Source: Albugo candida (taxonomy: Eukaryota). From it: a DNA stretch of 64,000 nt. Shown piece after piece: positions 10,469 to 42,636 of the stretch. Position 1 is the stretch's first letter. Each line of letters starts with the position of its first letter. Location of the stretch: NCBI GenBank assembly GCA_040437565.1, contig JBDOQK010000069.1, forward strand, positions 62,001-126,000, written 5' to 3'. The notes below the pieces were generated by a model. The model worked only from the letters and a program-made list of their open reading frames with translations, was not told where the DNA came from and ran no database searches. A program made the translations under genes and the position numbers.

Positions 10469-13400
10469 AAACGCTTGGTTGTGAATGTTTGTCGGAGGTA
10501 TATGAAGACATGGCGTTCGTGTTCATCCAAGAAACAACAGGGTTTGCCGTCGCGTCGTAATGAGGAAGCACGGCGATTGAGACTGTCCCGTAGATGAATT
10601 TGAACGTCGTAGTCTATCAGGAGTAAAACCGGACAACGCCAAGGGGCATGAGAAGGTGAAAGGTAAGAACGCGGAAGGATAGAGAACAATGATTTTCGTG
10701 ATGGTATGAAGCCGGTGGAACACAAGTAATATCTCGTAGATGAGAGTCGTAAAAGGGTGCGGGGAATGAACGTGAAATCCAGGCGATGACGTTGGCCTGG
10801 GCCAGAAAAAAGATGTCCGCTGAGGTGACAAACCTGCTAGCGGTCAGCGAGGTGGATGCATTGGAGCCAATGCAGATCTTGCGGTCGACCAGGGGCAAGC
10901 TGATGATCCTTCGAGTTTGCTTGATCGAGTAACAGGTTTATGGGAAGGTTGAAATCTCCGCATACCATGTGGACGATATCACTTGAGGATTGAGTCGGTA
11001 TTGCGGAGAAGAAGAAGACGAAGGTCTGGGGTGGGTTTTAGGACGTAAACACCGAGTAGGTGATATCGTTGGTCGTTGAGGATGCCGAAAGAGCTATTAA
11101 GCTTTTTTGGTTGAGTGGAACGTTCGAAGCTTCAAGTGATGTCTTGTACTCCCGGGAAAGTATGATTGGAGCCGAAAATGACATAAAACCCATAATGGCC
11201 TATGTGGGTAGGAAATGGAGAGTCGGACCAAAAGGCCTGCGTTTTAGAATCATGTCGTTGGAGATAATAAGTTGCTGAATTATGGCGCTCCAATGAAGGG
11301 CAGCGGGTTTCTTGAAGGAACACGACTTGATGGTGTTGGTGAGATTTGGAATACAAAGAGGGTACTGGCGCATTGGGTTCTTTAATATTGAGAATGGCGT
11401 CTTTGGCCAGCCAAGGTGCGGTATTAGACGCAACTGGAAGGTAGGAGTGTCAATGCTGGGGGATGAGTCATGGTTGAGGGCTTCTAATGTAGACAAGGCG
11501 AGCTTGGTTGAGGGTAACGTGGTGGGTTACATAAGCAATGTCGTACCCATTGAAAAGAGTGCAAGCAGAATGAGACATTTGTTGGTGAGAAGGAGAACCA
11601 GTGTACCGGGAAAGTAAGATGTCGATGAGGTAATAAGATGTTGTATCTCCAATGGATCAAAGTGGACATTTAGTGCTGAAATGAGTAAAAATAGGTCCTA
11701 AGCGGCAAGGAAGCGGATGTGCATCGTTGCATGAACTTCACTGTCTTGGGGTTGGATCAGGAGATTTGAATATGTCGAACTGGAGCGAAAGCTAACAAAG
11801 GCATGAAGTACTGAAGAAAACGTGCAGCCGTAAGCACGGTGCAGTAAGTGAGAACGGGTCCAAGGTTCTGTAAAAGGGGATTCTAGCGTTGCATAGAAAA
11901 CGGTCATGAAAATGGTGCTGGATGAACTGAAATATGTAGGAGCTTTGTTTAGGGATTGTGTTCGAACTCGCTAAGTAACTCATCATCAATGAACTCAAAA
12001 CAAATTGCCCGACACATCGAGTTAACATCGAAGCGGATAGAAGAATATCGGATAGCAGGAAATGTACCAGATTTTGATGACGTAATACGCCCGGGACATT
12101 GGAGGCGAGAAGAATCACTTTCCTGCATAACAAAATCTAACAGAGATATGGCCAAGTCGAACATGACATAGGTATCTCAGGATCGCAATGATCGATCCAA
12201 AGAGGCTCGTAGATAGCGGATGCGGTGGGGAAGACAGAAGTCATATGTTTATCCACAATATTCACATGTGTTTAGGTATGTGTGTGATGGGGCCATGAAG
12301 GCGATCTGTAGCAACGTAGGACGCTCGATTGACAAGGTGGAAGGGAACGACAATCACCTTAAGCATATGCGGCGATGCTTCATCATCGATGAAGGATACG
12401 TTGGAAAGGGTTTCGTCTCCACCCAAAATGAAGATTAATTCATCCGGGGGCACTAAAAGGGCTTGAGGCATCGGTATGTCCGGGGTGACAGAGTGTATAG
12501 TATATAGTGAACGTATAGTATCGAGACTCCATGGGATGCTAAATGTTATCGGCTGAGAAGGAGGAGGTTCGGCAGTTTAGAAACGGGGCGGAAGAGAGGA
12601 GATACGATTTTGTTGTCCTTGCTTATACGATGAGTCACCGCCATGGGCGAAGAAGTGGTGAGAGGTCGAGCGGGTCCAGGAAGGAGATCTCGCGAAGTAG
12701 GAAACTATTTGGGAGAACGCAATACGGGATTTTTTTCGAATTGAAATGAACAGTCTGCTGATTTGACAGAATTCCGCTATTGGTTGGCGGGTAAATACCA
12801 GGAGGGAGTCAACCACGATGCTCAAACTAATCATAAATTTCGGTGTCGGTGACGCGGTTCGGTACGCGTATCAAGTCGTCCTATTGACGAGAAGCAAAGG
12901 AAGAGAAACGAGAAATACGTGCTGCAGTTCTGAAAATTGATGATTCAAGGCAGGATAAATCTGAAGCCACCTTGCGTAGACAAATACCCATGTCGGAAAT
13001 GAGACGGAAGTCACGGAAAAATAGATTGTTCTTTGCATCTTGCCATGCGAGGGGTTGAAAGTCGTTGCCGAGTTCATGAAGGATCTAGAAGAGATTCTTG
13101 GAGCGAGATTGGCACCACACGAAAAGCCTGGGTCGATTCCAAGGTGGATACACAGGAGGTTTGGTGGTCGAACCGTGGATAAGAATTGGCGTAAAAGGTT
13201 AGGAGTGAGATTGACAAGGTGGACAGAGTTGCAGATCCATGAGTCAAAGGCGCCTGAGAGATGTCGCGGAACGGTAGAAAATACTGTCGAGAGGGAGCAA
13301 GAAAGGTCGATAAACCGTATGTTTTTTTTAATAGGGCGGTAATTGCTTTGCCAGGTCGGAGCAAATGGGGTGCGAGACGATCGGTAAAAATAGCTGAATT

Positions 13401-13914
13401 CGGGAACGTTCCAGAAGCCGACAAAACGTCACTGAGACGATGTATGGATGCCGAGCCAAGGTGTTGGAAGACAATGATTGTTCTGAAGACAGGGAGACGT
13501 CAAGTTCCACGAAGGAGTGTACCATTGTTCCAAAGTGGTTGATGGAGTGATTGAGTTGAGGACCGGGTGGTGGTATCCCAACTTGTACGTACCAGTGTTG
13601 TCCGTGTGCGAAGCGTATCGATCCAAAAAGGTGGAAGGTAAAACTATCGTGTTGAGCTCATTTTCGCTGAAGTCATATGCGGAAGATAAAGGATGTCCAA
13701 GCCAAGACCAAGGTGCCGAAGAAAGAGAGTAAAGAGGCATAAGGCTGGTGTAAACCAATGACGCGCTGAATGAGAGGAGGAGCGAATGGCAAGGAGACCG
13801 GAGATGAGTACCGATAGACGATAAATACGTAGTGTATCTACCGGGAAGGTGAAGAAAGACCACCTTGTGACACATGGACGGCGTGCCAGGTGCGTGGGAG
13901 AAGACCAGGTGGAT
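10469..13914 (-). mobile_element. Family X LINE fragment X1: ORF1 remnant and APE endonuclease
   Basis: VVFLQET (~11310), CGDFNLP-like (~10960) and DGKPCCFLDEHER fragments; ORF1 remnant similar to 28556-29170. Confidence 0.8.
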
Positions 13915-16900
13915 AGCAATGAGAATGGACTCCTGTGATGTTTTTGTTGATGAAGGAGCGAACGAGGATGAAGAGTTTGGCCAAGAACGTTTCCGGGATG
14001 TAATTAGCGGTACTAACATGTCAAAGTAGAGGTAGGATCACTGTCTTCAGAAGGAGGACGCGACCGCGATCTGTCCTTTCACGCCATCACCATAATACGA
14101 TTAGTTGATGGATGCTGCGAAGAAGAAGATCCAATTGGTGAGGAGCCGACTTGAAGCCATCCACAGGTACGCCAAGTAGTCGTGTGAAGTTGGTGGTGTC
14201 GAGGGTGTGGAGATTATACTATTGGAGAATGGCGCGCGTGGTATGGGTGGTGTCTCAAGTCGTGAAAGGTAGGACGACTGTTTTGGTGAGATTGAGTGCC
14301 ATCCCAACCGCGGAGCAGAAAGAATGCACATGTGCAGCGGAGGTTGGTGCGGGGCGTAGGTCGGCAAGAAGGCCGGTTGCATCATCGGTGAAAGCGAGGG
14401 TAAGTTGTCTCGAGGCGTGCATAGGGTTGACAATATCATGATGAAAGTTTGAACGGAGGAACGACAGTAGCGGGTCAATATAAAGCACAAAAATACCAGG
14501 AAAGAATGGATGACCCTAGCGAACTCCGATGCCGAGTTGCTTATCCATTGTGGGAAGTTGGGGCCGAAACCAAAGTTTGAGAGATTGGAGTAGAGGGCTG
14601 AGTAGGGAACACTTTCGAAGGCTTTAGCAAAGTCGAGAAAGATGCCTCCTTCGCATTTAAAGGACGGGAGGCGTTTACATAAGTGTTGGAGGTCTAGAAA
14701 TCGGCTAGGGCATCTCGAACACCTCGTCCAGGGACGAAGGCATGCTGATCGGGATGGAGAAGAGTCGGGAGAACGGAATTGAGTCGATGTGCCAATACTT
14801 TGGGGCCAAATTTGGCATCTTGGTTGAGGATCATAAGTGGTCGATAATTGGAAGGATCAGCTCTATCACCAGGCTTGGAGAGGAGGGAAAGATAACTTCT
14901 GCGTTGAAACTTTGTCATTCGGCCAAGGTGAACTTGGAAAGAATATATGAGTTCCACAACTGGTCTCAATAATGTCGGAAATAGTTGGTAGTATTCCGCT
15001 GGAAGGCTCGAGCTGTAAAGGGGGCGTCGAGAAAGGCCCGTTGTTGTGGAGTAAGACGGCACGTTGTTGAGGCAAGAAACGGAGAGTGTTGAGAAGAGGA
15101 ATAAGTGAAGGTTGAGTCGGAGAGCGTTGACGCAGGGTTGAATGCCGGGGATCGATAAATCCGAGCCCAATAGTTCACTGTTAAGTTGCAATAACGTGTG
15201 GGCAAGAAGTGAGTCCAGTTGGGAACTTAACCGGAGTAATTGCCAGACGTAAGGCAGGTGGTGTGGGAGGACGGAAGAAGGTCGATGTACTACCTTCCAT
15301 CTGATAGAAGTCCCTGCGGAACCGTGTCGATCGCCAGCGATCTTCGGGAGCTTCGAGAAAAGTGGGATATTCTGCCCGGGCCGAAAGGTAGGTCGGAGAT
15401 GAATGAGGGGAAGTGGCCTGAAGTTCGAGGTACTGAGATCGAAGTTGGTTCAGACGACGTTCGTTGAAGGCGCGTTTGGTAAGGAAGGTTTGTCGGAGGT
15501 AAATTAAGTCGCGTCATTTGTGCTCGTCCGGTAAGCATCCTGGTTTACCGTCACGTCGTAATTCGGACGAGGGAGAGGGGGGGGGTAAGGCTGGTGAAAA
15601 GATGAGGTATAACTTCGCGATCGCGCAGATGCCATACCGGACAGCGCCAATAGGTCCGTGAGGGTAATGGTTACGATCTGGAGGTGAGACGAAAGGAGAT
15701 AGAGTGATGACCTTCGTTATAGTATGAAGGCGGCGAAATGTTATGGATATCTTGAAGATGATAGTCGAAAAAAGTGAGAGATAGGAGGTAACAATCCAGT
15801 CGATGACGTTGGCCAGGATCAGAAAAGACGTGTGGTCGGATGGCTGATCCGCCATGGATCAATGAGACTAAGGCATTGACGAGAGTTGAAAAGTTCCAGT
15901 CGACCAGGGGCAGTAGATGATCCTTCGGGTCTGTTTTGTCGAGAAGTGGGTCGATAGGAAGGTTGAACTCGCCGCATACCATGTGGACGGTATCCAGAAA
16001 ATTGTATTGGTAATGCAGAGAAGAAGGGGGCCCTGTCCCGGGGTTTGAGTTGAAGCATAGACGCAGTCGAGGTGATAGAGTTGTGTACCAAGGCGAGCCG
16101 ATATGATCATGTATCGGTTGTGTAGTATGGAGAAAGCTCGAGGCTGGGAGTGAGATCTTCTATGTTGGTGAACGGATGATTGGAGCAAAAGATGACGCCG
16201 ACGCCATTTTGACCCGTAAAGGTGGGAATGAGAAGTGAAACCAAAAGGCATGTACATGAGAATCATGACGGAGAAGGAAGTATGTTGCAGAGTGGAGATT
16301 ATACAAGGAAGGAAAGCGTGTTTCTTGGATGAATGAAATTTGATGTTGAGGGAGAAGTTTGGAGCAGAAGAAAGGTGTGGGTGCATGAAGACCGATGATA
16401 TTGATGCTGGCACCATTGAAATGCCATGGGGTCAGACAAGACGCAACTTGGGTGTTCTGAAAGGTCGGAACCGGGGGGAGGAGAAGGTGGATGAGCCGCT
16501 TTGTGCCGAAAGAGCCGTCTTGATTGGAGGTAACGCAGTCGAGTACATAAGCAATGCTGGTCCCATATATGATCGTGCAAGTAAAACGAGGCTTTCATTG
16601 ATGAGGAGAGGGACTGATGTGCCAGCGAGGTAGATAGCGTTGGATTGAATGAGATGTTGCACGTTCAATGGATCGAAATAGACGCTGGATGATGAGGAGA
16701 TGAGGAGATGAGGAGGAAGAGATCCCACGTAGCCAAGAAAGGGGATGGCGTGGGCCTGGTATGGTATAATCTTGCAAATTATGGATGAGGTCGGAGTAAG
16801 TCGCTGTGTCGCGGACGGATGTGAAGTTGCCGAATAAGAGCTAAAAGGCGGAGCCATAGACCCGGTAGAGGGAGTGAGAACGTGTCACTGGTTGGAGAAA

Positions 16901-19900
16901 GCGTTGTTTAGTTGCTGAGAGAAGGTTCGTCCGAATAGGGAAGGTAGAGCGGCTAAACGTAAGTTTGCTTTCGTAATAGCGGTTTCAAGCGCTTTGGCGA
17001 GAAAAAAATCAATGTAGTCGAACTGATTCGCCCTTGACATTGATCCAACATCAAAGCAGATCGTTGACTGTTGAGATCGTGATGGGTGGATGGATTGGGT
17101 GCTTCAAGGAAGCCGGAACAGTGGACACATGAGTCGTATTTTTCGTGAATATCCGGGTTGAACGCCGAAATGGGAACATTAGGATCGCAATGGTCAATCC
17201 AGAGAAGTTCAAGAATGTTGGGCATGACCGGGAACTTAAAATTCATTTTGTTGTAAAATATACGGATTTGTGATTGAGGGATGTTTGAAACGGCCGATGC
17301 GTGATCCGTCGCGAGGTAAGATGTCCGCGTAACAAATTTGAAGTGCGGTTCAGTTGGAGGGGCGGCAGGATCTTGATGACTTTTTGACGTGCTGAAAAGG
17401 TGGCATCGCTCATGATCGAAGATCCGAATTATGAAGCGTCATTAGTAGAGTCCAAAACTGATGATTCGGAAGTAGGAAAGACAGCTTGGGGCTTTGAAGT
17501 GTCCGATATAACTGATGAAGATGCATCGGAAGGGCGGGTAGCGACAAGATTAGCCCAGATACTTGAGTTCAAAGGTCAGCTTAAGCTAAATCCGGAAGTC
17601 TTAGTTCCAGGGCGGTGAGGTGGTGGCGTCACTTTGTTGTACTTGCTGAGTCGATTTGTAACGATGTAAGGACGGAGTTGTGTGTGCTGGTGTGATGGGT
17701 CATGAAAAGTTATCCCCTAACCGGGTTATGGTAGAGACAGACGGGTACTTTGCCGGAGGTGAAATATGCTGTCCATTGAGTTGAGGGAAGCCCACTATCG
17801 ATGGAGGGTCGAATGCCTGTTGGGAGACAGCCACGTTGTTGAAACCAGTCGTAGATTTCACTATCCGTGATCCCATCCGGCAAGCGTACAGAATGTGCTA
17901 ATTATCGTGAAGTGAATGAGGAGTAGCGGTCAATTAGAAGCCGCAGTGGCGAAGAGACAAAGCTCAAACTATCATAAAGAAGATGCCACATTGAACGAGG
18001 TTCAGAAAAAGTCGATTCCCATGCCTTGGATTGAGCGGAAGTCGCGTAATAGGTAGTTGTTTTTGAAATTCTGCCACGCAAGGGTTTAAGACGCATTTTT
18101 GAGCTCAATGTAAATTTTCGAAGAGCTTCTTCAAGCGATATGTAACCGCAGAGAATCCAGAATTTGAACGGGACTTTGGTCCGAGTTGGTGCAATTCGAA
18201 GGGCGATGCGTTTTGCTCTTCGACATTGCCCGTAAGAAGAGCGTGAGCGATGGCTTCTTCAATTTCTTGGAGAAGAGCGTCATAAGAAATCTCAAGTGAA
18301 AAACGCTGTCGTTGAGGGGGTCGTGGAGGGCCAAGAGGGGTAGTGGTGGCGAATGTTGACGCGATTTCCATTGCTCAGCCCGTGACATTGATTGTGGTGG
18401 TGTTGGGCGAAGTTTCGGCGGCGGAGGAGGTGGATTGGTAGGTGGTGGAAGCGTTGATCCCGTTAATGTGGGGGAATAGAGGACGGTGATGTTGATAAGG
18501 GGGTTCCTTGCCTGCGGAAGCGTGCGATGAACGCGTGATCATGTTGGTTGGTCAGCCAGTAACAGAAAAGACACTGACCCAAGTCTATTTTCCGTGAAAA
18601 GCGGACCAAAGATCTGATTAAAGTAGAAAAGTGACGGGTAGGCTAGTCGACAGTACCACTGTAATCTGGTCCTAGGGCGATGGATGGGGCAGTAAACTGT
18701 AAAAGCTAAGTTGATAGTCGGAAATTCCAGTCGAAAGTAGCCTTGGGATCTGGGCTGTGGGCGAGAGGCGGCGCAGAGAACCGGAAGACTTGGTTGAAAG
18801 GTGGAAAGGTTCAGTTGAGGGAGAATGGGCACTATTGAAGGCGGAAAATGACGGAAAGATGAAGCTGGAAACTGTAGGATGTGCATTGCTTAAATTCGAG
18901 CTCCAAGAAAACCTTAAAGATGTTAATGTACCATACTGCTGATAATTGCTTCAATCCATTTGAACTTCGCTGTAGCTAGCAAACTTGACCCTTTTTTTCA
19001 TTTCTGGTTGTGGCCGCATGTACACATCTTCGAAATATCCATTAAGAAATGCTGTATCCACATCATACAGGGTAATCTCGTAACCAACTTGAACACAGAC
19101 ATACTGAGGAATACTCTGATCGAAATGATGCTTGCAACAGGGGTGTATGTTTCATTTTAGTCGACTCCGGTTGTTTGTCGAAGTCGTTGCGCAACCAGTC
19201 TTGCCTTATATATCTCAACTGCACCATGGTCGCCTCGCTAAATTGCAAACACCCATTTACACCCGATCACCTTCTGACCGTTTGGACTATCTACTCTTTT
19301 CCATGTCTGCTTTTCATTCAGCGACTTGAACTCTAATGCTGCCGCATGTTTGCATTGGGGAGCTTCAGCGCTTTGCAAAACTTCCGGTTATGTTGTAGGG
19401 CTTTCAATGGCTGCGTTTGCTTGCACGGACGTAAGCCGCAATCGCTTTTACTCTCGATTGACTTCAGCAAGATCGAGCTGATTTTTATCTTGATACGAAA
19501 TAATGGCATCGCTGAACGCAATTGCTGGTGTTGTCCTGTGGAGACGTCCGGGAACAATGCTGATGTCGTGATTATGTGAATATCCATCCATTTATATTCA
19601 TCATCTCGACACAATATTAGTTTCTGGACGTTGGCACTGAGAACTAACTTGGCTAGGAGGAACTGAGATAATTCCCCCCGGCACAATATTCATCAACTTC
19701 CATGTAGGAAGTGCCTTCAGCTGAATGATCCAAGGATACTAAGTGTATGTCAAGTCGTCCAGGTACCATGAGTTGATGATTTTAGTATGTTTGGCCAGCT
19801 TGATAAATTTTCATGAATTGCGGTTTCTGACACTCGATGCGTACACATGGAGTTCGATGATAATCAAATGAATTTCTTCTTGGAGTCATTTCAGGGTTCT

Positions 19901-22517
19901 AAAATATTGACATGAATATACATGGTCTGATTAGCTTCTGTTAGGCGAATACTTCGGGATATCTCTACTCTTTTGGTCGGTATGTTGAATACCCGATACG
20001 CTTTCGAGTTGTCCGCGTATCCGAGGAATAGCAGGATTAGGCCATTGCGTCTAATTATGATTGCTTCGACTTGTCGATATGTGCAAAGCCAGTAGATCCG
20101 AAAAGACGAGGGTGACTGATGCCTGCTTTTTCTTTGAAACAAATTTTCAGTGATGTGCACTACACTCGAAGACTATTCAGGACGCGGCGTATGATTTACG
20201 CTGCGGTACTGACAGCTTCCGCTCACCATTCCTTTGCCATATTCTTGTGTTCCATCATTGCACGAGCTCTTTAATGAATCTTCGGTTCATCGTTTCGCCA
20301 AACCATACTGTTGCGTTGAGAACGTGTCCCATAGTCTGATGGACTATTCCATTTCGTTGACAATCTTCCTCAATTCGCCTTTTCAAAAAATATGTACCGT
20401 TATCCGTTCATAAGCACTTGATCTCCTACTTGTTTGGCGTTCCACCATCGCTTTGTAAGCCACCTGCTGATGTCGTTCTCATCGGTCCCAACAGATCGCT
20501 GTAGATTACTTGCAGCAGTTCCGTTGTCTTCTACTCAATGCTCTTTGCGTCGAGAATTGGGACACCGATGATTTTTCATTTTCACAACCCGCACAAATCT
20601 CATCTGTTTCTATATCATCGTGAACAGAACATTCTGGCACTTGAACCCCAGTGCAACATTTTTGCGTTCGTTCAAGTTGAGCAGAGGGAGGTAACTCAAG
20701 CGAGCATGCCATATTTTCAGTCTTGACTGCCTTCACTGGAAGATGCAGGCGATGTAGTCTCGGTTCGTGTCCTTGGTAGTGTATGCAGTGTGACATCTCC
20801 CCCTCCGCTTTATACGAATGATCGTCTCGGTCTCTGACTTAATCTCGCACCAGTTGCTACCAAAAGAAACATTAAGACCACTGGCCGTTAACTCGGATGT
20901 TGATAGTAGTGGGCGGTCCAATTTCGGCACGTATAACACGTCATGAATGGTGACATGTTCAGCATTGTTGAGACTAACTGGTATTGAACAAGTGCTTTTA
21001 GCTTCGACTGTAGTCTCATTTGCAATTGGTATCTTGATTGAACGATCAAGATCCATCAGTGATGCGAATTCTGACTTGTCATAGCTCATATGACCGCTGT
21101 TAGCACTGTTCAAAAGCCAGGCATTCTTCTTTGGGCGGTAATTTTCATAAGCGCATAATCGTTCCGGCTTAAACGCTTTTTTTATTTGCTTCGTTAAAAA
21201 CATTCCGCTTGTCTTTGCACACGCTTTCCACAGTTGAAACATTTCCACCAAACGAGTTCCTGTTGATTCGAGTATTGTTGGGTCTTGTCCTTAAAAATTT
21301 ACTCTTCTTGGCCTTCAGCCCAAGATCCTTTAATTCCTTTTTTCTGGATACTGTCCTAGTCTCGGCGGATAATTTCACGAGCACTCTTCGAATTGATTCC
21401 AGGCATGCTCTTCAGGATTCGTGTAATGTGTTCATAGTCTTTAGACAGACTACCCAGAAACACCGGGAGCATTCTTACTCATCCGTCACGTCTCCGATAG
21501 ACGACATGCTCATCGCTAGTTCATCTAGCTTTATCATATGATCCATCAAGCTGCTCCCTCTTTCCATCTTGAGCTCGTGCAGCTAACGTCGCACTTGTAC
21601 TCGATTGTGTAAACTTTTCCGATCAAAAGAATTGTGGAATGTATCTCAAAGCTGCCTCGTCGACATCGTATTCCTGATCATCAATTGATTCAGCGCCGTG
21701 AGCATTGTCGAAAGAAGACAAAACGTCTTCAGGTCGTTTGTTCTCTAAACTGCCACCGCTGAAGCGTCCTCCATCTTGATGTCAACTTCTTCCAAATGCT
21801 GTAGTAAACGTCTCCTCGCAGACTTCATCCGTGCATTGAATTCCAAATAGAAGCAGTTGCCGTCTCTGAGTATGTCATGCCTGACATCCATCGCGCTTGG
21901 GCTCATTAGCTGCTGATGGTCTCCAACCAACGAGAACCAGGGAGCTTAAATTCGGAAGTACGTATATTAGGTCCCTAATTCACNNNNNNNNNNNNNNNNN
22001 NNNNNNNNNNNNNNNNNNNNNNNNNNNNNNNNNNNNNNNNNNNNNNNNNNNNNNNNNNNNNNNNNNNNNNNNNNNNNNNNNNNAGTAAACGTCTCCTCGC
22101 AGACTTCATCCGTGCATTGAATTCCAAATAGAAGCAGTTGCCGTCTCTGAGTATGTCATGCCTGACATCCATCGCGCTTGGGCTCATTAGCTGCTGATGG
22201 TCTCCAACCAACGAGAACCAGGGAGCTTAAATTCGGAAGTACGTATATTAGGTCCCTAATTCACTTAACAGTTAATCTAAGCCTTTAAAAACTACCGCAT
22301 CTTATCTGCAAGTCCGTTATGTTGCTAACATCCAACGAAAACTGGTCCGAGGGCAAGAGACAATTCATTGAGTGTAGAGGTGAGCTGGAAAGGGGTTACT
22401 GGGGTTGGTGGAGAAGGCTGAGTAGGCTGCTAAAGTTGAGACGTAGCCGGCTTTATGGACTATTGATGGAGCTAGGTACAAGGAAAAGCACGTGTGCACC
22501 AGCGAGAGAATTGGAAA
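13915..22517 (-). mobile_element. Family X LINE X2 (5' UTR, ORF1 remnant, APE, RT; 3' truncated; copia inserted in 5' UTR)
   Basis: VCGEFNLPIDP (APE); NYRPLMILNQDAKFGPKVLAHRL and LAFTDDATG (RT); 5' UTR 22335-22517 homologous to 32492-32680. Confidence 0.85.
18900..22330 (-). mobile_element. Ty1/copia remnant (5' LTR 22192-22330, PBS, gag, protease, integrase, start of RT; 3' truncated)
   Basis: Minus strand LTR TGTTAG...AGCA then PBS-like GCTAATGAGCCC; gag DGNCFYLEFNARM; protease WLLNSANSGHM, DVLYVPKL; FLGYADNSKAYRVF; YTPVASI. Confidence 0.85.
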
Positions 22518-22535
22518 GTCGGGAGTTTGGCTGGG
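22518..22535 (+). repeat. 28S rRNA-derived target duplication GTCGGGAGTTTGGCTGGG
   Basis: 17/18 match to conserved LSU GTGGGGAGTTTGGCTGGG; lies exactly between the 3' end of X3 and the 5' end of X2. Confidence 0.85.
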
Positions 22536-29474: not shown

Positions 29475-29492
29475 GTTGGAAGTTTGGCTGGG
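29475..29492 (+). repeat. 28S rRNA-derived target duplication GTTGGAAGTTTGGCTGGG
   Basis: 16/18 match to the LSU motif, at the X4/X3 junction. Confidence 0.75.
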
Positions 29493-31712: not shown

Positions 31713-32473
31713 TAACATTTACCTTTCGCCTTATCCGCTTTTCTCTATAACGATTAACACTCAATGAATTCATGTCTCTTACCAGTATGCTCGGACTTGG
31801 TCTATCGCCTCCTTCACAAAGCGCTAGGATGCCGCTACAAATATCAATGGGGCACGGAAGTCCATCTCTCTAATCAATGCGTTCAAGGCTGCTAGGACAT
31901 CGAAACGCCTCGTCACCTTTTTGGGATTGTCCCTTGGCTCGAATCATCTGGTCCTTCTGCTTGAAGCCCTTTCGACTTCATCTATAGCAACGCTTGTATT
32001 GGACTCGTATTCTTTTCTATCATGACCTTCGTAAACGTCCCCGTTTTCAAAAATACATAAGCTCAACTGTACTACTGCCTATCGTACACTGTCTTCGTGG
32101 ATGTGTTTGCGTTCGTTATGGCTCCATCGGGACCACCGCCTCTATAACAACAAAACTGTAAACTAGGCATTTGTTTTACATCAAGTGAACACGACCTTCC
32201 GCCAACATAAGCAATCATATGCCACCGCTCCCTGCAGCATATGGAAGCGATCAAAACAACACTTCACCGCCTCCTTATCGACTATCATGGCCATACTCTT
32301 GCGTTTCTGCCGTTTTCCAGTCTTCCCGGTTTCAGCCAGTCATGTGAGCACCACTTCGAGCTCACATGATCGCCTTCTTCCAGTTTCGTTAGCTTTTCCT
32401 GACCTTCATTGCCTCACCTATATCACCTAGCTAGCATTTAGGAAATTCAAGTACGTAAAATGTAACGTAACTT
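31713..32473 (+). mobile_element. Family X LINE X5 (3' terminal fragment, plus strand)
   Basis: RLLHKALGCRYKYQ and LRSLWLHRDHRLY match the X4 C-terminus; ends GTAAAATGTAACGTAACTT. Confidence 0.85.
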
Positions 32474-32491
32474 CCCAGCCAAACTCCCCAC
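32474..32491 (-). repeat. 28S rRNA-derived target duplication CCCAGCCAAACTCCCCAC
   Basis: Perfect reverse complement of LSU GTGGGGAGTTTGGCTGGG, at the X5/X6 junction. Confidence 0.9.
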
Positions 32492-32829
32492 GTTCCAATC
32501 TGCTCGCTAGTGCACAGGTCCCTTTCCATGCATCCTGCTCCCTCATTGGTCCAAAAATCTGTCTACGTCCCGACTTTGACAGCTTTCAGCCTTCTCAGCT
32601 TCTCTCTCCCAACCCCAGTACCCCTTTCATCACAGCTCTACCACCAACGGATCGTCTCTTCCGTTCGGATCAGTTTTCCAGCTGCTTCGTTCCTGCATTT
32701 CCACCGCCACAACAAACTCAGTCTGTCCCTCGACTGGCTCTTTCCAACTTTGAAGTAGTTTTTCCGGTCCTTGCGCCATCTCTCGCCCACAGAGCAGATT
32801 ACTGGGATACTTTCGACCGGATCTTCCCT

Positions 32830-33000
32830 GCCTCTTTACTGGTTCTTGTCGTTTTTTTACCAGATATCTTCTTAGCCTTACTGGCTTTTCCGGCTCTTTA
32901 CTGGCTCTTACTGGCGTTATGCTGACTCTTTCCGGCTTCTAACACGCTCTTGATTCATTAAAGTCTCTATTCCAGCATTCTAGTGGCTCTCTACCAGCTC
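32830..33000 (+). repeat. Degenerate ~10-nt CTCTTTACTGG-like repeats in the X6 5' UTR
   Basis: ctctttactgg, ccttactgg, ctctttactggctcttactgg, ctctttccgg visible in series. Confidence 0.55.
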
Positions 33001-34068
33001 TCTAGCAACACTCGATTGGAGTTCGACTAAATCATACCGACTTTACGGCTCCTTCGTCCCGACTCTACGGCTTCTTCCGGATCTCCTTTACGGATTCTCG
33101 TGCCCGCTTCTACGGATTGTAGCCCATATCCCTAGCTCAGCTTTGCATACTCCATCGTCTTCGCGTTTCGACTTCACGCAAGCATCCGACTCCTTTCCCC
33201 ATTCGATTCTATTTCCCGGTCTTTGGTTACTTTCAGCTCTATCGGGCTTACTTCCGTCAGAACACCCCCATTCTCGGCAACTTTTCGGCTCCACTTTGGC
33301 ACCCTTCATTTCGTCTACCCTCGTGTCGGTATCTACTAGGTGGTCTCATTCTGAAGCACGACTTCCTGTATACTAATTTCGAAACCGCCTTTCTTACTTA
33401 GCTCAAAAGCAAAGACAACATACGGAACACTCCATACTCTGAGGTCTGAATTTAACGCTTGGGCAATCTCACTTCTCCCGCCAGTTGAATCCTCGGAGGC
33501 TTACTTTTCTATAGTCCCGGGAATCGGGCTGTGAGTGACGAAAGGTTTCTTTCGGAAGCTTTATTCGGTGGAGCTCCTTTCTTCTCAATCTGGTAATTGG
33601 GACTTCCCACAAGTGCTGATACCACAGCTCTTTTTGTTTCGATTATGGTAGTGCCAGCCATTACACTGACTCTCGCCTCTCGTAATGTGACAGATTCCGC
33701 CACGCAAACGATGCCCCTAGTTCTTCACCTGATCATGGATCAACTTCGCCATCGAAGAAAGAAACGGTGCCTTTGCCCTTACCCAAACCAGTCACACCAC
33801 CTTTTCGTGTCTCCGTCAACACCACCTATCCCACCCCAAGTTCAATTTCCCCTACTTGACCCTCACAACAACGCCGTACTCCACAACCTTCGCAACGTCC
33901 CCGATTTCCCTCACATATCTCGGATGATGCGTATCTCAGAGAAAGTGAGCAGGCGATTGCTCAAGCCCTCATTAATGTCGATACCTCAGACCAAAAAGGG
34001 ACAGTGCTCCGTTTCGCTCCGACCCGAACGGAGATTTCATACAAACTCTGGATCCTGGCTGGTGCCAT

Positions 34069-35615
34069 TGTTGAAAATATTCAACAATGTGTTTTAGGTT
34101 TCCAGTCGCACTTGGACTTAGTTTGAACGATTGGTTAGGATTTTGATTTTCTAAGAAATAAAACCTCAGTTTTTGGCAATTTTCCTGGACCACCGCATCT
34201 TCGCTCACCTNNNNNNNNNNNNNNNNNNNNNNNNNNNNNNNNNNNNNNNNNNNNNNNNNNNNNNNNNNNNNNNNNNNNNNNNNNNNNNNNNNNNNNNNNN
34301 NNNNNNNNNNGACGGCTATGGAGTCACCTGTTGCATGAGAAGCTTAGCGATGCAGGTTTCAAACAAAGTCTAACAGACTCATGTTTATATTACGACCAAG
34401 ACACAAAAGTATTTACGGTTCTGGATGTTTATGTCGACGATATACTGATAACGGGGACAAGTTTTTCGAGAAATGAGTCTACATTTGATAGTCTTTCAAG
34501 TCTCTCAATCAAGAATCTCGGACCCGTCAGCATGTTTTTGGGCATGCGAGTTCGCTACAGCGATGAAGACGGATACTATTTGGATCAGGAACCGTCTATA
34601 TGCGAATTAATAACGAAAATGAGAATGGATGAAGCGCATCCGGTTCTCACGCCTATCGGTCGGGACTACAGTGATAGTACAACATCAAAATCGGACTGCT
34701 TGGAGATAAGTTCAGTCAAGAAGCCAACTATCAAGAAGTTCCAGTCTTAGGCTGGCAGTCTTTTGTGGATTGCACGCTGTACGCGTCCAGACATCAGTTT
34801 TGCTGTGCATCAGCTGACGAGACGTACTCATGCACCAACAACAGCCGATTGGGTGTTAGGTGTCAGAGTGGTGAAGTATCTTAAGGGTACTAAAAGTCTG
34901 AAGCTCTATTTGGGTGGTGAAGTATCCACGAATTCCAGAGAAGTCAGTCTGGAAGCGTTTTCGGATGCTGATTGCGCAGCAGATGATGAAACGAGAAACA
35001 GCATATCTGGTACAGCATTTAATTTGAATGGAATGACGATCAGCTGGTCATGCAAGAAGCAGCACTCAGTGGCATTATCGACGATGGAAGCAGAGTTTGT
35101 AGCAGCATCGAAGGCATCGCAGGATTTACTTGGAGCAAAGAAATTATTCAGCGAGTTAAAAGTCAAAGTGAAGGAGCCAATGATCTTGTGGATGGATAAC
35201 CAGGCGGCTATCAGTCAATTTCTCAACGAAGCTACTTCAATCAAGCCAAAACATATCGACGTCCGACTAAAATTCGTCAGAGCTAACATGGTCAGAAAAA
35301 TTATCGCACCAAGGTACGTACATACGTCGAAGATGATAGCCGACTTGCAGACGAAGGCGTTTCCGACGCCAAGATTTCTTGAGCTAAGAGAGTTATGTCA
35401 GTTAAGGGATCGGACAATGCAAGTCGAAGATGACACAACTTCAAGTGCAACCAGAAAGGAAGGAGTGTTGAAAGAACTTAACAATGTGTTTTAGATTTCT
35501 AGTCGCACTTGGAACTTAGTTCAAACGATTGGTCAGGATTTTAAATATCTAAAAAATAAAACCTCAGTTTTTGGCAATTTTCCTGGACCACCGCATCTTC
35601 GCTCACCTGCCAACA
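34069..35615 (+). mobile_element. Ty1/copia element, both LTRs (34069-gap at 34211; 35466-35615), RT/RNaseH; TSD GCCAT
   Basis: TGTTGAAA...CCAACA LTRs; GCCAT at 34064-34068 and 35616-35620; PPT AGAAAGGAAGGAG; YVDDILI, TRPDISFAV, FSDAD, ALSTMEAEF, KHIDVR. Confidence 0.95.
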
Positions 35616-38600
35616 GCCATCTCTGCCTCCAAGAAACTCTTGAGGTACTCTATAAACTCGGCAACGCCTCTCAACCCCTCGGGTTGCAGGATGACCAGAT
35701 GAGCAGATAACCACCTACTACGCAACTTTCGTCTTATCCCAGGCATGGCGATTAACTTTATATGTACTTACAGTACATCTATCAAGGCAGCATCACCAAT
35801 ATCGTCACTAAACTATAACTTTTTAGAACGGCTACTCGGATTACACGCTTCCCTTCCTTTGCCTCACGCTATTGGGTGGATTTGGTCCGACTCCCGGATG
35901 GCATCAGCGGCAACGAAATTTATGGCTGGTTTCAACACCGCGGCTACATATCTTCTGGACTTCTCTTCAATCGATAGCGGCTCTCGCCAAATAAACGCAC
36001 AGTATATTTCAATACCGACAACACCCCGGATTGCTTAGTCTTAAACAACGCTCCAATTGGGATATCACTTATACACATCCCTCCGATTACAATACGAAAC
36101 TCAAACCCTGTATTGTCACAAATCGACTCCAAGAATTCAACAAGGACATACCATCATCTCTCCTTCCTCGCGACAAACCTTTCCCGAGTAAACTTCTCAT
36201 CCCATTTCACCTCTAGCAAATTAGCTAGCTTCACCGCTACTCGACCCACTCAACCTTCACCTTCCGTTACATCGGACACGCATTTGCCACTATCAAAAAT
36301 TCCTATCTTCGATACCTCGAACCTTGACACGGAAGACGACATTTTCTTCTTCTGGCTCCTCTTTCATGAGTGAAGAAGTTGCTACGGCTCTTGCTAAGGT
36401 CATCATCGTACCCACCGCCCCTCCCTCAGATCCACACTACACTTTGATCAAATGTTCAATATATTTGGCTACATATTATAGGATTGGGTCGGAACGCATT
36501 CCCCACTCAAACATCTGTATAGTAAACGAAAAATCTGGATTTTGAATTCTCAGTTACACCCAACATCTATGAGCCCCTTTCAATCGATCATTGCGACCCC
36601 GCCGTTTCAATATCCTCCTTCGATATTGACATGCACGAGACCAAAGACTCATCAGTCCCATGCGCCGGATTTATCACCGCTCCGAACACCTCAACCCTAC
36701 CTGCGCTCCAATCTTCCACGATTTGCTTTGACGTCGGCTCCATGAGTAAAGCAAATTTGTTAGACTTCATCAACGACTTCCTTCATAACGAAATCGGCAG
36801 CAACTCGGAGCATATCCTTCTGCGTATTTCATCACAACCTGCAGTATTCGTCCGACCATTTTCGATTCAGCTACTGGACGCTCTCACGGATCCTTGAACA
36901 CGTTCACACTCACTTTACCTTGCATATGGTTCCAACTTCTCCTCTGTTTTCCCCAACTTTTCTTCCTTTCGTGCCACGACAACTTTCTCTGACCTCATCC
37001 AAAATATTCAAGATGATACGGTCTCTGGCACGAACCACAATGTCTACTTGGCAACACGGGATCTCTTTCTTCTTATCTCAGCTTCCAACGTATACTTTGA
37101 CCCACTCAAACTTTCCCACCTCATCAACTCCAAAGCCCACTACTTTACTGGCACTTTGGTTTTATTAATCACATACGACACACTGATATTACTAGCTCGT
37201 TCATCAATGGGAACAGCCCTTCTTGTATACTCAACAACATTAATCATCCATCAAGAGGCAATATAATCACTGGCAACACTTACCGCTGACCCCTCAACCA
37301 CACCGATCAAACCCAGCATGCTAGTTGTGTCTGAACTCGCACCATGGCACTTCACCTGCACCAGTCTTAATGTCAATGGGATTGATGCACCTTTCCATTC
37401 ATTATTTTTTTAAACTTCTTTGGAACCAACAAGTTATCTTTATCCAGGAAACCAAAATTTCTTCCTTGAATCGCCTCAATTTGGCCACCTACTTCCTCCA
37501 ACTTTAGGACTCCCACGTTACAGCCTTTTGGTCACAAACTACCTTCTCAACATACACTGGACAAAGTGAGGTTGGCGTCATCATCGTCTCCAACAGCTTT
37601 TTCACCGATGTCCTCGACATTTCTTCTACCCTCCATCTATCACCCAACGTTTCAACCGTGACGTGGTCATATGGGCTTTCATTGGATCTCAAAAGTATCA
37701 CCTACACTGCATCCATGCTCTATCTCCTCCATAGAATCGTACCACTTTGTTCGACGCACTCGCCACCATATTTTGGAGTGATACTGTCCACATTGTTTGC
37801 GGGGATTTCAGTCTTTCTCTTGATGCAGTTGTTAACCAAGCTGACTTAACAGACCATCACCTTTTGCCTGGCCGAATGGAACTTTTACATTGGCTTATCT
37901 GCCTTCACCTCATTGATCCTTGGAGGGTTGGTAGCCCGTCCGCGCAACTCTTTTCCGGTCCTTGACAGCTTCATCGACAGGATTATTGACCCTATTCACT
38001 TCCTCTATTCGACCATCATCTCCAAGACATCCGTTACCAACCCTGCGTTAATTACCATCACGAAGACCATCATTCGAATTCATTTCTTCTTTTTTCTCTT
38101 CGTCCTACCCTTTACTGACTCGTTCACCGTGAAGTTGTCCTGCTTGGAATCTACAAGATCACACCGTTCCAGCTCATCTTCATTAAAGTCTTACCAGGCT
38201 GTCTTTTGGATGAACACAAGCGCTGCGACTCGATGTAGCTTCGTCGAACGTTCAGGGATAGCGCTTCTTACACGAAGAACGACTAGAATATGTGCATACC
38301 CAGTATCTTCATCTCCGATCTACGGTATCCCCATCACAACCTTCACTACTTTAAGCCAAGTCTGAATATGATACCTTCCGTACCAGCCTCGCCGAACACC
38401 GGCATCATCTGTTTTTTCTCATGGACTAATATCAAATGAAACGATGTACATCACCCTTCTTTCGCCCACCTACCCCACCAGTATTACGCCCCTCCATCAC
38501 TTCAGTTCTACTTCAAGATGGAAATCGTTCCTTCTGCCCTCAATGCTACAGCCTCTCTACATCGTCAATATGGGCGCAAATTTTTCGCTCGACATCTCAC

Positions 38601-41600
38601 GACATCGCTTGCACATTGACCACTCCCCATTTCGAATACTCCACTCACCAATGCTCGTCTTTCCTTGACCCGGCTACCTCCAGAATCACTCCTTCACAAC
38701 GGCGATATCTTGATGCCCCTTTCACGGCCCGTGACTTTTAACACGCAATCATTCTTACGGCAAAGAACAAAGTCGCAGGCTCTGATCGACTTCCAGCCTA
38801 ATACTACCAGCTTTTCCCGATACTTTGGGGACCTATAATTGGAATTGGTGTATTCTTCTCAATTTCGATTAGGACATGTGACCCAATTTCAACGACGAAG
38901 TTACCTTTCTCTCCTTTCCCAACCCGACAAGCGATCTGACTCATCCAACTACCAGCCGTTGCTGCTTCCCAACCAAGACACCAAGTTTATCATGGCCGTT
39001 CGTCTCACCTCTCTTCTTCCCAGTCTACTCTGCACGGAGCAACATGGTTTTATACCTGGATGAGCATCATGGGACGCCTTCCGCACGTTCCCCGATCTCC
39101 AACACTTATGCAAGCATCCCCTTCCCTTACCAACAAAGGAGCGATGTTGGAAAAGCTGTTTACAGCGTCGATCACTCTGAACTATTTCCGAAACTCACAC
39201 ACTTTGGTTTTGGTTCTACCTTCTGTCACTACATACAAACATTCTACAAGGACACTCTCACAGCTACGCTTATAAATGGTACTTCGCGCGCGTTCTTTCA
39301 AATCAGCTGTAGTGTCAGACAAGGTGACGCACTACCACCTGGCCACTTCGTCGTTTACATCGAACTCCTCGTCGCATCTTTTTTCTCCACCTTCACCCGA
39401 TTCAGCATATTAACTCCTCTCCACCCCACACTACATCTCCCCTTTGCATTTACTGATGATGTCACGGGCCTACTCAATGATCTCCGCCAGGCTCCGCATT
39501 TTATCAATCGTGTCACTCAATTTTTTCCGCAAAGGGCATGGTACATACTTCTTTTGACAAAACTGTCGTTCTACCGTTCGTCACTCGGAACGAAGCATCT
39601 GACACGCGCACAGCCTTACAACAACTTGGGATTCGCACACTGGCTTTCACTGAGTGCACCCGCCTACTATACATTCTCGTCGGTGGTCCACAATCGGCAT
39701 CACACCAATTGGAAACTCTTCTGCACACGATTCTTCAGCGTATGGTTATTTGGGGATGACCTGCAGGAACATATCTCGGTCGAGTCCTCCCACTCAAATC
39801 TACTATTCTTCATCTACTTTGGCACGTTGGCACCGCGCATTACTTGCCTCCGACATTCCTCACAAAGCTTTCCTTCCTGATTCGTTTCTTCGTCAACAAG
39901 CAAATCACTGGACAAGCTTCCACAAATGCCCCATCTGGATTTCTCTTACTTATGGCACACAGACAGCCTCAATCAACGTGACCTCTCATTACCCCCTCCA
40001 GTGCAACACTTCTTGGCTACCGCCTCTCGATTCTCATAGCGGGTATCAACGAAACACACTTATCCCCTTCTTCACCTCCTCACTGGCTCTCCCCTGCACT
40101 ATATCTCTCCACTGTAGCTATACACACGCTCGGCCTTGACTTCGCCATATTGTACTACCCTCACATGCCGTCAGCACAAATGAACTATTCCAGTTAGAAA
40201 GCACGACCATCTTTCTGGATCTACAATATCAGTGCTTGGACTACACTGGATCACCTACATTGGGACACATTGACTAGATCTCCTACTCACCTCATTCATC
40301 AACCCCTATGAAATTACGGTCAAATTACTGACGGCGCTTCTCGGCTTCCAATCTTCAGAGTTTTCACTTCGGTTCATCATCCTGGCAACTCCTCCATTCA
40401 CCGCCTGAGCGACTTTACCCTCCAATTTGGATCCTTCCATTTCCTCCCGTATTCGCCGCTCTCTTTTCATCTTATCTACCATGAACGGGACGCGCGATTA
40501 CGGCTTCAATAGACAGTATACAGCGACTTCTTTCAAGCTACACATCATCCACTCTTTCTAACGATTCTATCTCACCTGCTCAGAGCCTTCGACTCATGGT
40601 TATTTGGCTCAGTNNNNNNNNNNNNNNNNNNNNNNNNNNNNNNNNNNNNNNNNNNNNNNNNNNNNNNNNNNNNNNNNNNNNNNNNNNNNNNNNNNNNNNN
40701 NNNNNNNNNNNNNTACCATGAACGGGACGCGCGATTACGGCTTCAATAGACAGTATACAGCGACTTCTTTCAAGCTACACATCATCCACTCTTTCTAACG
40801 ATTCTATCTCACCTGCTCAGAGCCTTCGACTCATGGTTATTTGGCTCAGTTTAAGTTTCACGACTTACACTGTCGATAAAACTCCGCCTCCTCTCAACAA
40901 CGACTACTCGAACCCTGCCCCTTACACCTCTTCACATCGACTACCACTTATCCCTTCCCGACACCTTTTGATCCAATCAAGATTCTTTTCATCTTCGAAC
41001 AGTACCAGTTAGATCGGATCTCGTCTACCGGCTTCGTCACAATGCATTTGGATTCAGATACCCTTACGTTGGCGTACAATCACGCCACAATCCATACCTG
41101 TGTCTTCGGCTGCTCTTCTTTGAAAACACCTCGACACGTTTTCTAGGATTGCCCGTAAGCTCGTCTACTTTGGATTGGTTTCTCCCTCCACTACACCGCC
41201 TCTGCGATACCCTCGTCACTTGTTCTAGGATACCGTTCGATTATCAGCTCCAAATTCTTCCCCCTGCACTCCACGCTTATTGCTCCACCACTATATCGGG
41301 GACTTTACCCTGTAATCGTGGCTGTATCTTTAGAGTATTGTGGCTTCATCGAAACAAACTCTTCTGCACAAGCAATAAAAGAACATCCAACATTTATCCC
41401 TCCTATGCAAAGCTTTACGTACGNNNNNNNNNNNNNNNNNNNNNNNNNNNNNNNNNNNNNNNNNNNNNNNNNNNNNNNNNNNNNNNNNNNNNNNNNNNNN
41501 NNNNNNNNNNNNNNNNNNNNNNNCTCTTCTGCACAAGCAATAAAAGAACATCCAACATTTATCCCTCCTATGCAAAGCTTTACGTACGCGTTCTCATCGT

Positions 41601-41776
41601 CTCTCTCGCCTTTTTTATTTTTTCTACCGACATTACGGATTACACGTCTTCCATCTTTCCGCAACGGACACTTGTTAGACTTGCAACCTTTTTCCTTCTC
41701 TTTCCATATTTTATCATTTTTCGCACTAACTAGCATACCACAGGAAAACCATCGTCAGTATAATGAAACGTAAGTT

Positions 41777-41931
41777 CTCAGTCAAACTCCCCACCTGACG
41801 ATGTCTTCCACGTAGTTCACCCGTACAAAAGCACAGGCTTATATCTAGAACTAGGCACCCGTGAAGATGGCTAGACACTATTTCATGGTATAAGTAAGAC
41901 GACATTAAAAGTAGTGGTATTTCACTGTCGG
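41777..41931 (-). rRNA. 28S (LSU) rRNA gene fragment, domain V, ending at H80/P-loop; diverged
   Basis: Reverse complement reads GTGAAATACCACTACTTTTAATGTCGTCTTACTTAT...GAAGACATCGTCAGGTGGGGAGTTTGACTGAG, matching two conserved eukaryotic LSU blocks with a variable segment between; runs into a gap. Confidence 0.9.
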
Positions 41932-42619: not shown

Positions 42620-42636
42620 ACCAGAATTGCCCTCCA
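42620..42636 (-). repeat. 18S rRNA-derived target duplication ACCAGAATTGCCCTCCA
   Basis: 16/17 match to the reverse complement of SSU TGGAGGGCAAGTCTGGT. Confidence 0.8.

Follow-up and report, generated by a model that had tools for sequence, protein, structure and literature searches.

Decayed L1-like retrotransposons of Albugo candida joined in antisense to one base of the 28S rRNA gene, and a sister lineage followed by an 18S-derived motif

Target-specific long interspersed nuclear elements (LINEs) are models for safe-harbour, RNA-templated gene insertion and for the coexistence of selfish elements with small genomes. The known specialists of ribosomal DNA (rDNA) are mostly animal elements of the R2 group or the arthropod R1 clade, and those studied for expression ride on rRNA transcription. 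Relative to the site considered here, those of R1 and R2 lie several hundred nucleotides (nt) upstream in the 28S gene, with insertion in sense. In a study of Drosophila R1 (PMC5932611), an array is described with 33 nt of rDNA between units, double insertion and unequal exchange, 5'-truncated tandem copies and nested transposable elements (TEs). Tx1 is an animal clade with many target-specific members (Kojima 2015, PMC4494074), and among related elements Mutsu inserts into 5S rRNA genes, in their 5' half, and has target-switching subfamilies (PMC5340908). Here we analyse a window of 64,000 nt from the oomycete Albugo candida, which causes white rust on crucifers (positions 62,001 to 126,000 of contig JBDOQK010000069.1, GenBank assembly GCA_040437565.1) that carries decayed LINEs joined in antisense to 28S (family X) and a sister lineage followed by an 18S-derived motif (lineage Y). 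We consider it probable that family X consists of autonomous L1-like LINEs that insert at one exact 28S base, in antisense, by the mechanism proposed below, and that Y does likewise at 18S. The original prediction, made from the letters of this stretch alone, had proposed an L1-like LINE of the apurinic/apyrimidinic endonuclease (APE) type inserted in antisense at a single exact base of the P-loop in 28S, in head-to-tail arrays; this core held, given two independent 28S junctions, four of four tails and the 18S and 5S flanks of sister lineages.

Junctions between element tails and the 28S rRNA gene

The 18-mer CCCAGCCAAACTCCCCAC occurred four times in the window at up to 3 mismatches, against a shuffle expectation of 0.05 (0 of 100 shuffles reached four). 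Every copy began one base past a homologous LINE 3' tail, so that all four recognisable family X tails are followed by it, as had been predicted. The copies lie at 22518-22535 (- strand, 1 mismatch) between elements E2 and E1, at 29475-29492 (-, 2 mismatches) between E3 and E2, at 32474-32491 (+, no mismatch, antisense 28S) between C and D, and at 41777-41794 (+, 2 mismatches) after D. Beyond this last one the sequence continues, in register with the 18-mer, as a 28S rRNA gene fragment (41777-41931, - strand, antisense to D) that reaches an assembly gap at 41932; since this gap of 100 N cuts the fragment, its 155 bp are a minimum length. The 28S identity of the fragment, which had also been anticipated, was borne out by Rfam, as 41786-41931 (-) matched LSU_rRNA_eukarya at model positions 2483-2620 (64.6 bits, E 4.8e-15). 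The match was obtained only once the 408-bp piece 41524-41931, which lies between two gaps of 100 N, was scanned alone; scanning of the whole window at gathering thresholds returned no match and overlooked the fragment. The literal 23-mer that the original prediction had offered as the P-loop sequence had no match in the window at up to 3 mismatches, because the window copies end at ..GGCTGGG, but the P-loop label itself fits, and live rDNA in raw reads does read ..GGTGGGGAGTTTGGCTGGGGCGGCACATCTGTT.. at this place. Nucleotides 2251-2254 of E. coli 23S rRNA are G residues that we take to be those of the P loop. They correspond to the GGGG of GACTGGGGCGG, including Gm2251, in the E. coli 23S sequence (2905-nt version) printed in a preprint.

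The 408-bp piece was present in 20 runs of 14 studies. Contigs of three runs from different studies cover 41524-41812, spanning the junction at 41777 and stopping at 41812, where the rDNA repeats begin. X15 record 9 (5822 bp) crosses the junction with no difference, X4 record 13 with 1 other letter and 1 gap, and X10 record 1 with 2 other letters and 1 gap; the crossing contigs retain a T at 41782 that is specific to element D. In the raw reads of X22, depth changed at 41779 from ~13, the level of unique sequence, to ~2200, and 1609 reads departed leftward at this base with the consensus ..AACAGATGTGCCGCCC, the same departing consensus being given by ..CTAACAGATGTGCCGCCC. These departing reads represent uninterrupted rDNA and fix the site as ..GGTGGGGAGTTTGGCTGGG/GCGGCACATCTGTTAG in the rRNA sense (here and below, a slash marks the insertion point or nick), with the uninterrupted 28S site in raw reads being ..GGCTGGG/GCGGCACATCTGTT. 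Base 41782 was C in 1841 of 1861 reads, which indicates that the live gene has GGC there, like the other three 18-mers. A second, different copy is joined at the same base to 28S that is unmutated for 30 nt (X10 record 2 and X4 record 14), and the depth of X10 record 2 was 85, compared to 7 for unique sequence. This copy showed 12 other letters in 82 nt, the 11 tabulated ones being at 41782 or to the left of it. Past the 18-mer, 28S continues by 137 nt in one copy and by 12 nt in the other. Element tails amounted to at most ~4% of the rDNA depth.

Could the junction be an assembly artefact, the 408-bp piece being chimeric or misplaced? Among the 13 gaps of 100 N in the window, several have flanks that are 100% identical, and no difference from the read consensus of rDNA is listed for 41783-41931 in spite of the badly decayed state of D, a pattern that polishing with multi-mapped reads could produce. 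Nevertheless, the contigs of three short-read runs span the junction at 0-2 differences and have the T that is specific to D, the piece recurs across the studies mentioned, and the spacing between the ORF2 (open reading frame 2) C-terminus and the tail in D fits that in E2, E3 and C, all of which makes an artefact scarcely credible. The undiverged 28S beside a decayed element suggests that D probably lies in a unit at the edge of the rDNA array or in one that is still exchanging.

Two side observations concern the 28S fragment. A 55-nt piece from a variable 28S region (41825-41879) recurs with 5 differences in ~66-kb contigs (X15 record 12 and X4 record 17), where it has unrelated flanks and is a further stray rDNA relic elsewhere in the genome. 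Besides, 42 raw reads skip 81 nt of the fragment (41809-41891) and several loose ends show other 28S versions, the simplest explanation being rDNA from the host plant or from other organisms of the sample, aligned at conserved parts.

Anatomy of the 28S-type copies and growth of the arrays

Ten LINE copies (Z, E0, E1, E2, E3, C, D, H, F and G), each with many frame breaks, were mapped in the window by tblastn with the related proteins P0008, P0014, P0020 and P0015. The 28S-type copies form two arrays: the - strand reads E3, 18-mer, E2, 18-mer, E1 and then the fragment E0, and the + strand reads C, 18-mer, D and the 18-mer that passes into 28S. Element D (32492-41776, +) is full length but decayed, with ORF2 remnants at 37379-41424; its matches to P0008 and P0014 span amino acids (aa) 7-1296, RVT_1 lies at 38882-39877 and its 5' end is homologous to that of E1. 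Element C (31731-32473, +) is 5'-truncated, starting from about ORF2 aa 1150 by tblastn, and is 68-85% identical to the 3' region of E2. It stands head-to-head with E3 (29493-31731, -), another 5'-truncated copy (from about ORF2 aa 626 by tblastn) that has RVT_1 in the ORF 31069-31869 and 71% identity to E2 over 2 kb; as there is no rDNA between E3 and C near 31731, the region must have been rearranged. E2 (22536-29474, -) has full-length size and ORF2 remnants at 22790-27398, matches aa 2-1303 of P0014 and contains two assembly gaps with duplicated flanks. In E1 (13323-22517, -) the 5' end is at 22517, an ORF1 trace at 17621-17886 and ORF2 at 13323-16408; regarding its 3' end, local alignment of the four tails to 10000-13400 gave scores of 23-33, compared to a shuffled maximum of 34, and thus recognised no such end. 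E0 (10372-11392, -), an endonuclease-region fragment matching aa 3-324 of P0014, represents a further copy and is 66% identical to 15473-16026. Two sub-lineages were distinguished, E2+E3+C and E1+D, and the last ~80 nt are common to both. Poly(A) was found at none of the seven tails of families X and Y, which end instead in a conserved tail.

The three full-size LINEs E1, D and G carry Copia-type inserts within their first ~200-500 nt, at differing positions and in differing orientations: 18872-22336 in E1, ~32.8-35.6 kb (~32828-35627, RVT_2 at 34139-34747) in D and ~50.0-52.4 kb in G. Their location near 5' ends may reflect a preference of Copia for this region or a survival bias.

Lengths within the arrays have to be read with the assembly in mind. 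Each of the 13 gaps in the window measures exactly 100 N; they lie at 4367, 5896, 21984, 23048, 26631, 34211, 40614, 41424, 41932, 44411, 51923, 54629 and 63197, and at least five have identical or nearly identical flanks (100% at 5896, 21984 and 23048, 98% at 44411 and 87% at 4367; for example, 5605-5895 equals 5996-6286 and 22575-23047 equals 23148-23620). Such identical flanks point to unmerged contig overlaps and not to biology, and they inflate the element lengths. The sole tRNA found in the window by ARAGORN was a tRNA-Ile at 4677-4751.

Mutation resembling repeat-induced point mutation, suggested by C>T changes in the 18-mer of D, was considered and ruled out by a transition to transversion ratio of 256:255 (E2/E3) and 165:227 (E1/D), a CpG observed/expected ratio of ~1.0 and a lack of TpA enrichment. 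Ratios of ~1 in both measures indicate plain old age of the copies.

The original prediction had concluded that the copies, being divergent, must be independent insertions, a piece of reasoning that does not follow. Better arguments for independence are that neighbours belong to different sub-lineages, that they have different 5' truncations and that their Copia inserts are at different positions. Alternatively, the arrays may have arisen without repeated re-insertion, one or a few 28S insertions having been amplified by unequal crossing-over or segmental duplication and having diverged afterwards. We regard this as unlikely on balance, yet as the most serious of the alternatives. The Drosophila R1 precedent includes array growth through unequal exchange (PMC5932611), the ratios given above speak of plain old age, and the identity between the E2-to-E1 joint and the C-to-D joint, taken through tail, 18-mer and following 5' end, is 77%, close to that among the elements (63-76%). 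Nevertheless, the neighbours are unlike each other, with E3 (from ~aa 626) before the full-length E2, E2 before E1 of the other sub-lineage and C (from ~aa 1150) before D; the Copia inserts lie at ~nt 200 of E1 and at ~nt 354 of D; and the second copy joins intact 28S elsewhere in the genome. Amplification would, moreover, bear on the growth of the arrays only, and not on the site specificity of family X.

Relatives with 18S-derived or 5S flanks and placement in an oomycete clade

Lineage Y comprises three copies on the + strand beyond the 28S fragment. H (42033-42619), which follows a gap, is the 3' piece of an 18S-type LINE (tblastn aa 1236-1280), and is separated from F by a 17-mer at 42620-42636 (+), antisense to 18S. 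F (42637-49519) has an ORF1 trace at 45066-45251 and ORF2 at 45386-49355, and is followed by another antisense 18S 17-mer at 49520-49536 (+), so that it has one on both sides. G (49537-60299) shows ORF1 traces at 53565-55803 and ORF2 at 56011-59784, and after it comes a third antisense 18S 17-mer at 60300-60316 (+) and then non-LINE sequence. The 5' end at 49537 probably belongs to G, a link that we infer across the nested Copia (- strand; RVT_2 and Retrotran_gag_2 at 51123-52243(-)) that separates them. Behind all three Y tails comes ACCAGACTTGCCCTCCA, each time with 1 mismatch and at a differing position (chance 0.14). The tail motif GTGTAATGARAT lies at 42601, 49499 and 60281 in H, F and G, respectively; it has 6 matches in the window, 5 of them at LINE tails and one elsewhere (25925). 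The reverse complement of the 17-mer falls inside the universal 18S primer NS31, TTGGAGGGCAAGTCTGGTGCC, which would put the site at ..GTCTGGT/GCCAGC.., presumably the foot of the 530 loop. The 28S and 18S targets agree at 10 of 18 positions (P 0.005, fixed register) and both putative nicks read CTGGK/GC. After H and F we found 5' ends homologous to those of D and E1, and after G an unrelated sequence. Taking the 17-mers and 18-mers of the window together (seven cases), one is followed by the 28S flank, five by exact 5' ends of related elements and one, after G, by sequence that is unexplained; the homologous 5' ends start at the same base in each case. The 18-mer is found on both sides of D and of E2 and the 17-mer on both sides of F, always inside arrays. 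The 60317-60400 stretch after the 17-mer of G is GC-rich, with a perfect 6-bp hairpin (GAGATC..GATCTC), and looks vaguely tRNA-like; ARAGORN finds no tRNA in it.

Among the 80 metagenome loci compared, L001 and L002 were the only close relatives. L001, the one close relative that is intact, encodes an ORF1 of at least 473 aa with no Pfam family and an ORF2 of 1367 aa with APE, reverse transcriptase (RT) and zf-RVT domains, and it can be aligned at its 3' end to the tails from Albugo (..TAGGAAAG.CA..AGTGTAATGTAAC..). It enters a 5S gene in sense, its positions 5956-6116 matching model positions 1-120 of the Rfam 5S model with 39.8 bits (gathering score 38). Model positions 1-30 come from the LINE tail, and a 33-nt insert carries the GTGTAATG motif. 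According to our reading of the alignment, tail and flank form 8 of the 9 helix I pairs. The tail may imitate the 5' third of 5S and restore a 5S gene where the element inserts. No 5S-like signal was found in the Albugo tails within 22300-32700 at E <= 10. With two targets in the window (28S and 18S) and a third (5S) in L001, the results extend beyond the scope of the original prediction.

Two of the more distant metagenome loci deserve a separate mention. L006 (1-203 and 8479-8761) ends in poly(A) and lies in sense in an 18S gene near model position 1003, near ..GAAGACGATCAGATACCG.., with 18S on both sides, apparently duplicated, that we read as fungus-like. L019 (5892-6010), also with poly(A) and in sense, enters a vertebrate-like 5S gene at about position 27 and is Mutsu-like. 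Elements of the L1/Tx1-like type that target rRNA genes may be commoner than listed.

These sister flanks bear on a further explanation, in which the 18-mer just forms the terminal 18 nt of the element, for instance as a piece of 28S captured once by read-through, with no site preference, and in which the 28S after D is there by chance or secondarily. Such an origin would account for an 18-mer at every tail and for the one tail found with another flank (X4 record 15, see below), and an element RNA may carry target sequence, co-transcription with the target being said to strengthen specific integration of some target-specific elements (PMC4494074). It is nevertheless very improbable, given that two different copies run in register into 28S beyond the 18-mer, by the 137 and 12 nt mentioned above, that six of the seven window cases show no random DNA after the 17- or 18-mer, and that in the sister lineages an 18S-derived 17-mer or a 5S flank occupies the same position after the same conserved tail.

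The Pfam domains in the window's own ORFs were confined to RT fragments and Copia pieces, with RVT_1 at 31069-31869(-) (37.3 bits), at 57409-58158(+) (81.7 bits) and at weaker places. The first of these ORFs is, over 52% of its length, 100% identical to an NCBI entry for a hypothetical protein from Albugo candida. A HMMER search with the RT ORF against 1.8 billion representatives gave 4359 matches at E <= 0.001, the best long ones being 45-55% identical, and these relatives bear Exo_endo_phos or Exo_endo_phos_2, RVT_1 (76-117 bits) and, weakly, zf-RVT. The endonuclease match had an E of 6e-10 in P0014 and of 2.9e-5, below the Pfam cut-off, in ORF2 of L001. No window ORF was Pfam-significant for endonuclease; by tblastn the endonuclease region was aligned in E0, E1, E2, D, F and G, and the similarity of the ORF2 remnants to the relatives extends from endonuclease to C-terminus in E1, E2, D, F and G. 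The named relatives were from Globisporangium and Pythium brassicae, and a second search added Phytophthora, Peronospora, Bremia, Peronosclerospora, Aphanomyces and Albugo laibachii, at 37-62% identity; the next-best matches, at ~25-30%, were plant L1-like proteins. The best solved relative was human L1 ORF2p (E 1e-47 over endonuclease and RT), R2 proteins matched in RT only (E 4e-19), and a PDB search that listed L1 endonucleases contained no R1Bm or TRAS1 endonuclease entry at E <= 0.01, which we take as a hint. A search of genome contigs returned 8 loci in metagenome-assembled genomes at 25-31% identity, none of them useful, and one of viral contigs returned none. Altogether, these alignments support the view that the elements are decayed APE and RT (and zf-RVT) LINEs of an oomycete-wide, L1-like clade.

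Two quick IQ-TREE runs were made on a 600-column RT region anchored on P0008, the window rows being read through frame breaks from tblastn high-scoring segment pairs, with stops as X. An oomycete clade of 32 rows had a support of 99 in both trees. Within it, the four 28S-type copies formed one clade (approximate likelihood-ratio support, SH-aLRT, 96 and 95) closest to P0008 and P0175, a second clade (96 and 98), nested in a Peronospora/Globisporangium/Phytophthora lineage, united the two 18S-type copies, and L001 fell in a third lineage, adjoining Globisporangium. For the window copies and L001, to which targets were assigned, target type follows phylogeny. Copy Z (439-1527), an RT fragment of a different and deeper LINE lineage, grouped with P0191 and P0190 outside the oomycete clade; its row, 31% filled, was dropped from the second run. 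The plant L1-like sequences also fell outside the oomycete clade and L019 was not its sister, deep nodes being weak (79-92 SH-aLRT). Of the L1/Tx1-like label given at the outset, the APE-type and L1-like part is supported, and the Tx1 part is not, since the Mutsu-like L019 stands outside the oomycete clade, with the deep nodes as weak as stated. The elements share with the Tx1 type their sequence-specific targets in multicopy genes. They have an APE domain upstream of RT and so lack the arrangement of the R2 superclade (a C-terminal restriction-like endonuclease and no APE), and they depart from the L1 clade sensu stricto in having no poly(A), in the L001 ORF1 without Pfam family and in the position of plant L1-like sequences outside the oomycete clade.

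Proposed mechanism and comparison with known systems

In the model that we favour, an element consists of ORF1 followed by an ORF2 whose N-terminus carries the APE endonuclease, with a reverse transcriptase after it and a zinc-binding region at the C-terminus. The endonuclease would nick the rRNA-sense strand between GGCTGGG and GCGG in the sequence coding for the 28S P-loop (helix 80), and the freed 3'-OH would prime reverse transcription from the conserved, non-polyadenylated tail (..GTRTAATGNAAC plus 6-8 nt). A second-strand cut 16-18 bp away would then duplicate the target segment CCCAGCCAAACTCCCC(AC); the target-site duplication is put at 16-18 bp because the AC that closes the 18-mer may be part of the element's 5' end. 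Lying antisense to RNA polymerase I (Pol I) transcription, the element would need a promoter of its own, possibly in its conserved 5' end (ACKTTCCAAT..CTCGCTRGTG). New copies would enter the duplicated target and unequal exchange would follow, giving head-to-tail arrays with an 18-mer at each joint, of which those in the window would be old, decayed, Copia-invaded and rearranged examples. Lineage Y (H, F and G) would do likewise at 18S, with a putative nick at GTCTGGT/GCCAGC. If the lineages are named A (28S), B (5S) and C (18S), the sequence expected after lineage-A 3' ends would be CCCAGCCAAACTCCCCACCTGACG...

A number of observations weigh against this model. No 5' junction of an element with 28S was found in the window, where the upstream 28S flank TCTAACAGATGTGCCGCCC had no match, and the target-site duplication is to that extent putative. 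Only two junctions extend past the 18-mer into 28S, the other three in the window entering another element, and the joints at 77% identity could mean that E2-to-E1 and C-to-D are one ancient duplicated joint and not two insertions. X4 record 15 (14,877 bp) has an X-like tail followed by CCATATACCAGAG.. at 41777, and an 18-mer cannot be recognised there. The 17-mer is assigned to 18S through a universal primer and not through Albugo's own 18S. An intact copy from Albugo did not turn up, and the 28S and 18S motifs were absent, at up to 2 substitutions, from all 80 metagenome loci. Finally, among 20 distant LINE loci taken as a control, two (L006 and L019) carry rRNA genes, which indicates that rRNA flanks are not rare among metagenome-assembled LINE contigs.

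A wider proposal would be that oomycetes have their own ancient L1-like clade with three lineages, one specialised on the P loop of 28S, one on the 530-loop foot of 18S (these two antisense to Pol I and hence self-promoted) and one on 5S, that shifts between targets went through look-alike sites (CTGGK/GC), and that the tail mimics the 5' third of 5S and repairs the split 5S gene; in this full form we consider it rather doubtful. If the insertion model is true, rRNA-gene specialists of the APE type would exist outside animals. Insertion antisense to Pol I in the two most conserved functional loops of the ribosome would require a promoter of the element's own and another kind of relationship to the nucleolus, and closely related endonucleases with 28S, 18S and 5S targets would offer a natural series in which to trace how APE specificity is re-programmed. 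The elements would also explain, if confirmed, part of the TE-rich and hard-to-assemble regions of the Albugo genome.

In the literature, the available part of a 2024 review table of TEs in rDNA had nothing for oomycete, stramenopile, Tx1, antisense or Phytophthora, and in the portions of open-access text covered there was no 28S target-specific element without long terminal repeats (non-LTR element) in antisense orientation, a description in Repbase only being possible. Among the matches listed for Albugo retrotransposons and rDNA, rDNA-specific elements appeared in no title or abstract start; among those listed for the 28S site string, none had a TE context, being primer or sequence listings by title; and a search for oomycete, 28S and non-LTR gave Utopia alone as relevant. 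Judged from open-access text, this is apparently an undescribed group of rRNA-gene-specific retrotransposons.

Utopia is a target-specific non-LTR retrotransposon known from oomycetes (PMC4640811, in the portion available) and in this it is alike; it differs in being NeSL-related, with a restriction-like endonuclease and U2 small nuclear RNA genes as target. Neither "Albugo" nor "18S" occurs in that portion, where "28S" is mentioned for R2 and for LIN families of planarians. R2, R4, R5, R8 and R9 likewise insert site-specifically in 28S or 18S genes; according to the parts of the sources at hand, they do so with a restriction-like endonuclease downstream of RT and with rRNA co-transcription, whereas the APE of the elements described here is upstream and their insertion antisense. 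The likeness to R1 is closer, since R1 is an APE-type LINE with one 28S site, head-to-tail arrays outside functional rDNA and short rDNA at the joints (PMC5932611). R1 is nevertheless an arthropod element, and here the site is the P-loop, the orientation antisense, the host an oomycete, the nearest protein L1 ORF2p and the tail conserved, with no poly(A). Mutsu, Keno, Kibi, Koshi and Tx1 resemble the Albugo elements in being APE-type and L1-related, with strict targets in multicopy RNA genes (PMC5340908 and PMC4494074). They differ in that Tx1 is an animal group, that the Mutsu-like L019 stands apart from the oomycete clade and that the oomycete tail is conserved and not poly(A). Mutsu, for its part, is paralleled by the presence of L001 in 5S and by the switch between 28S and 18S in the oomycete elements.

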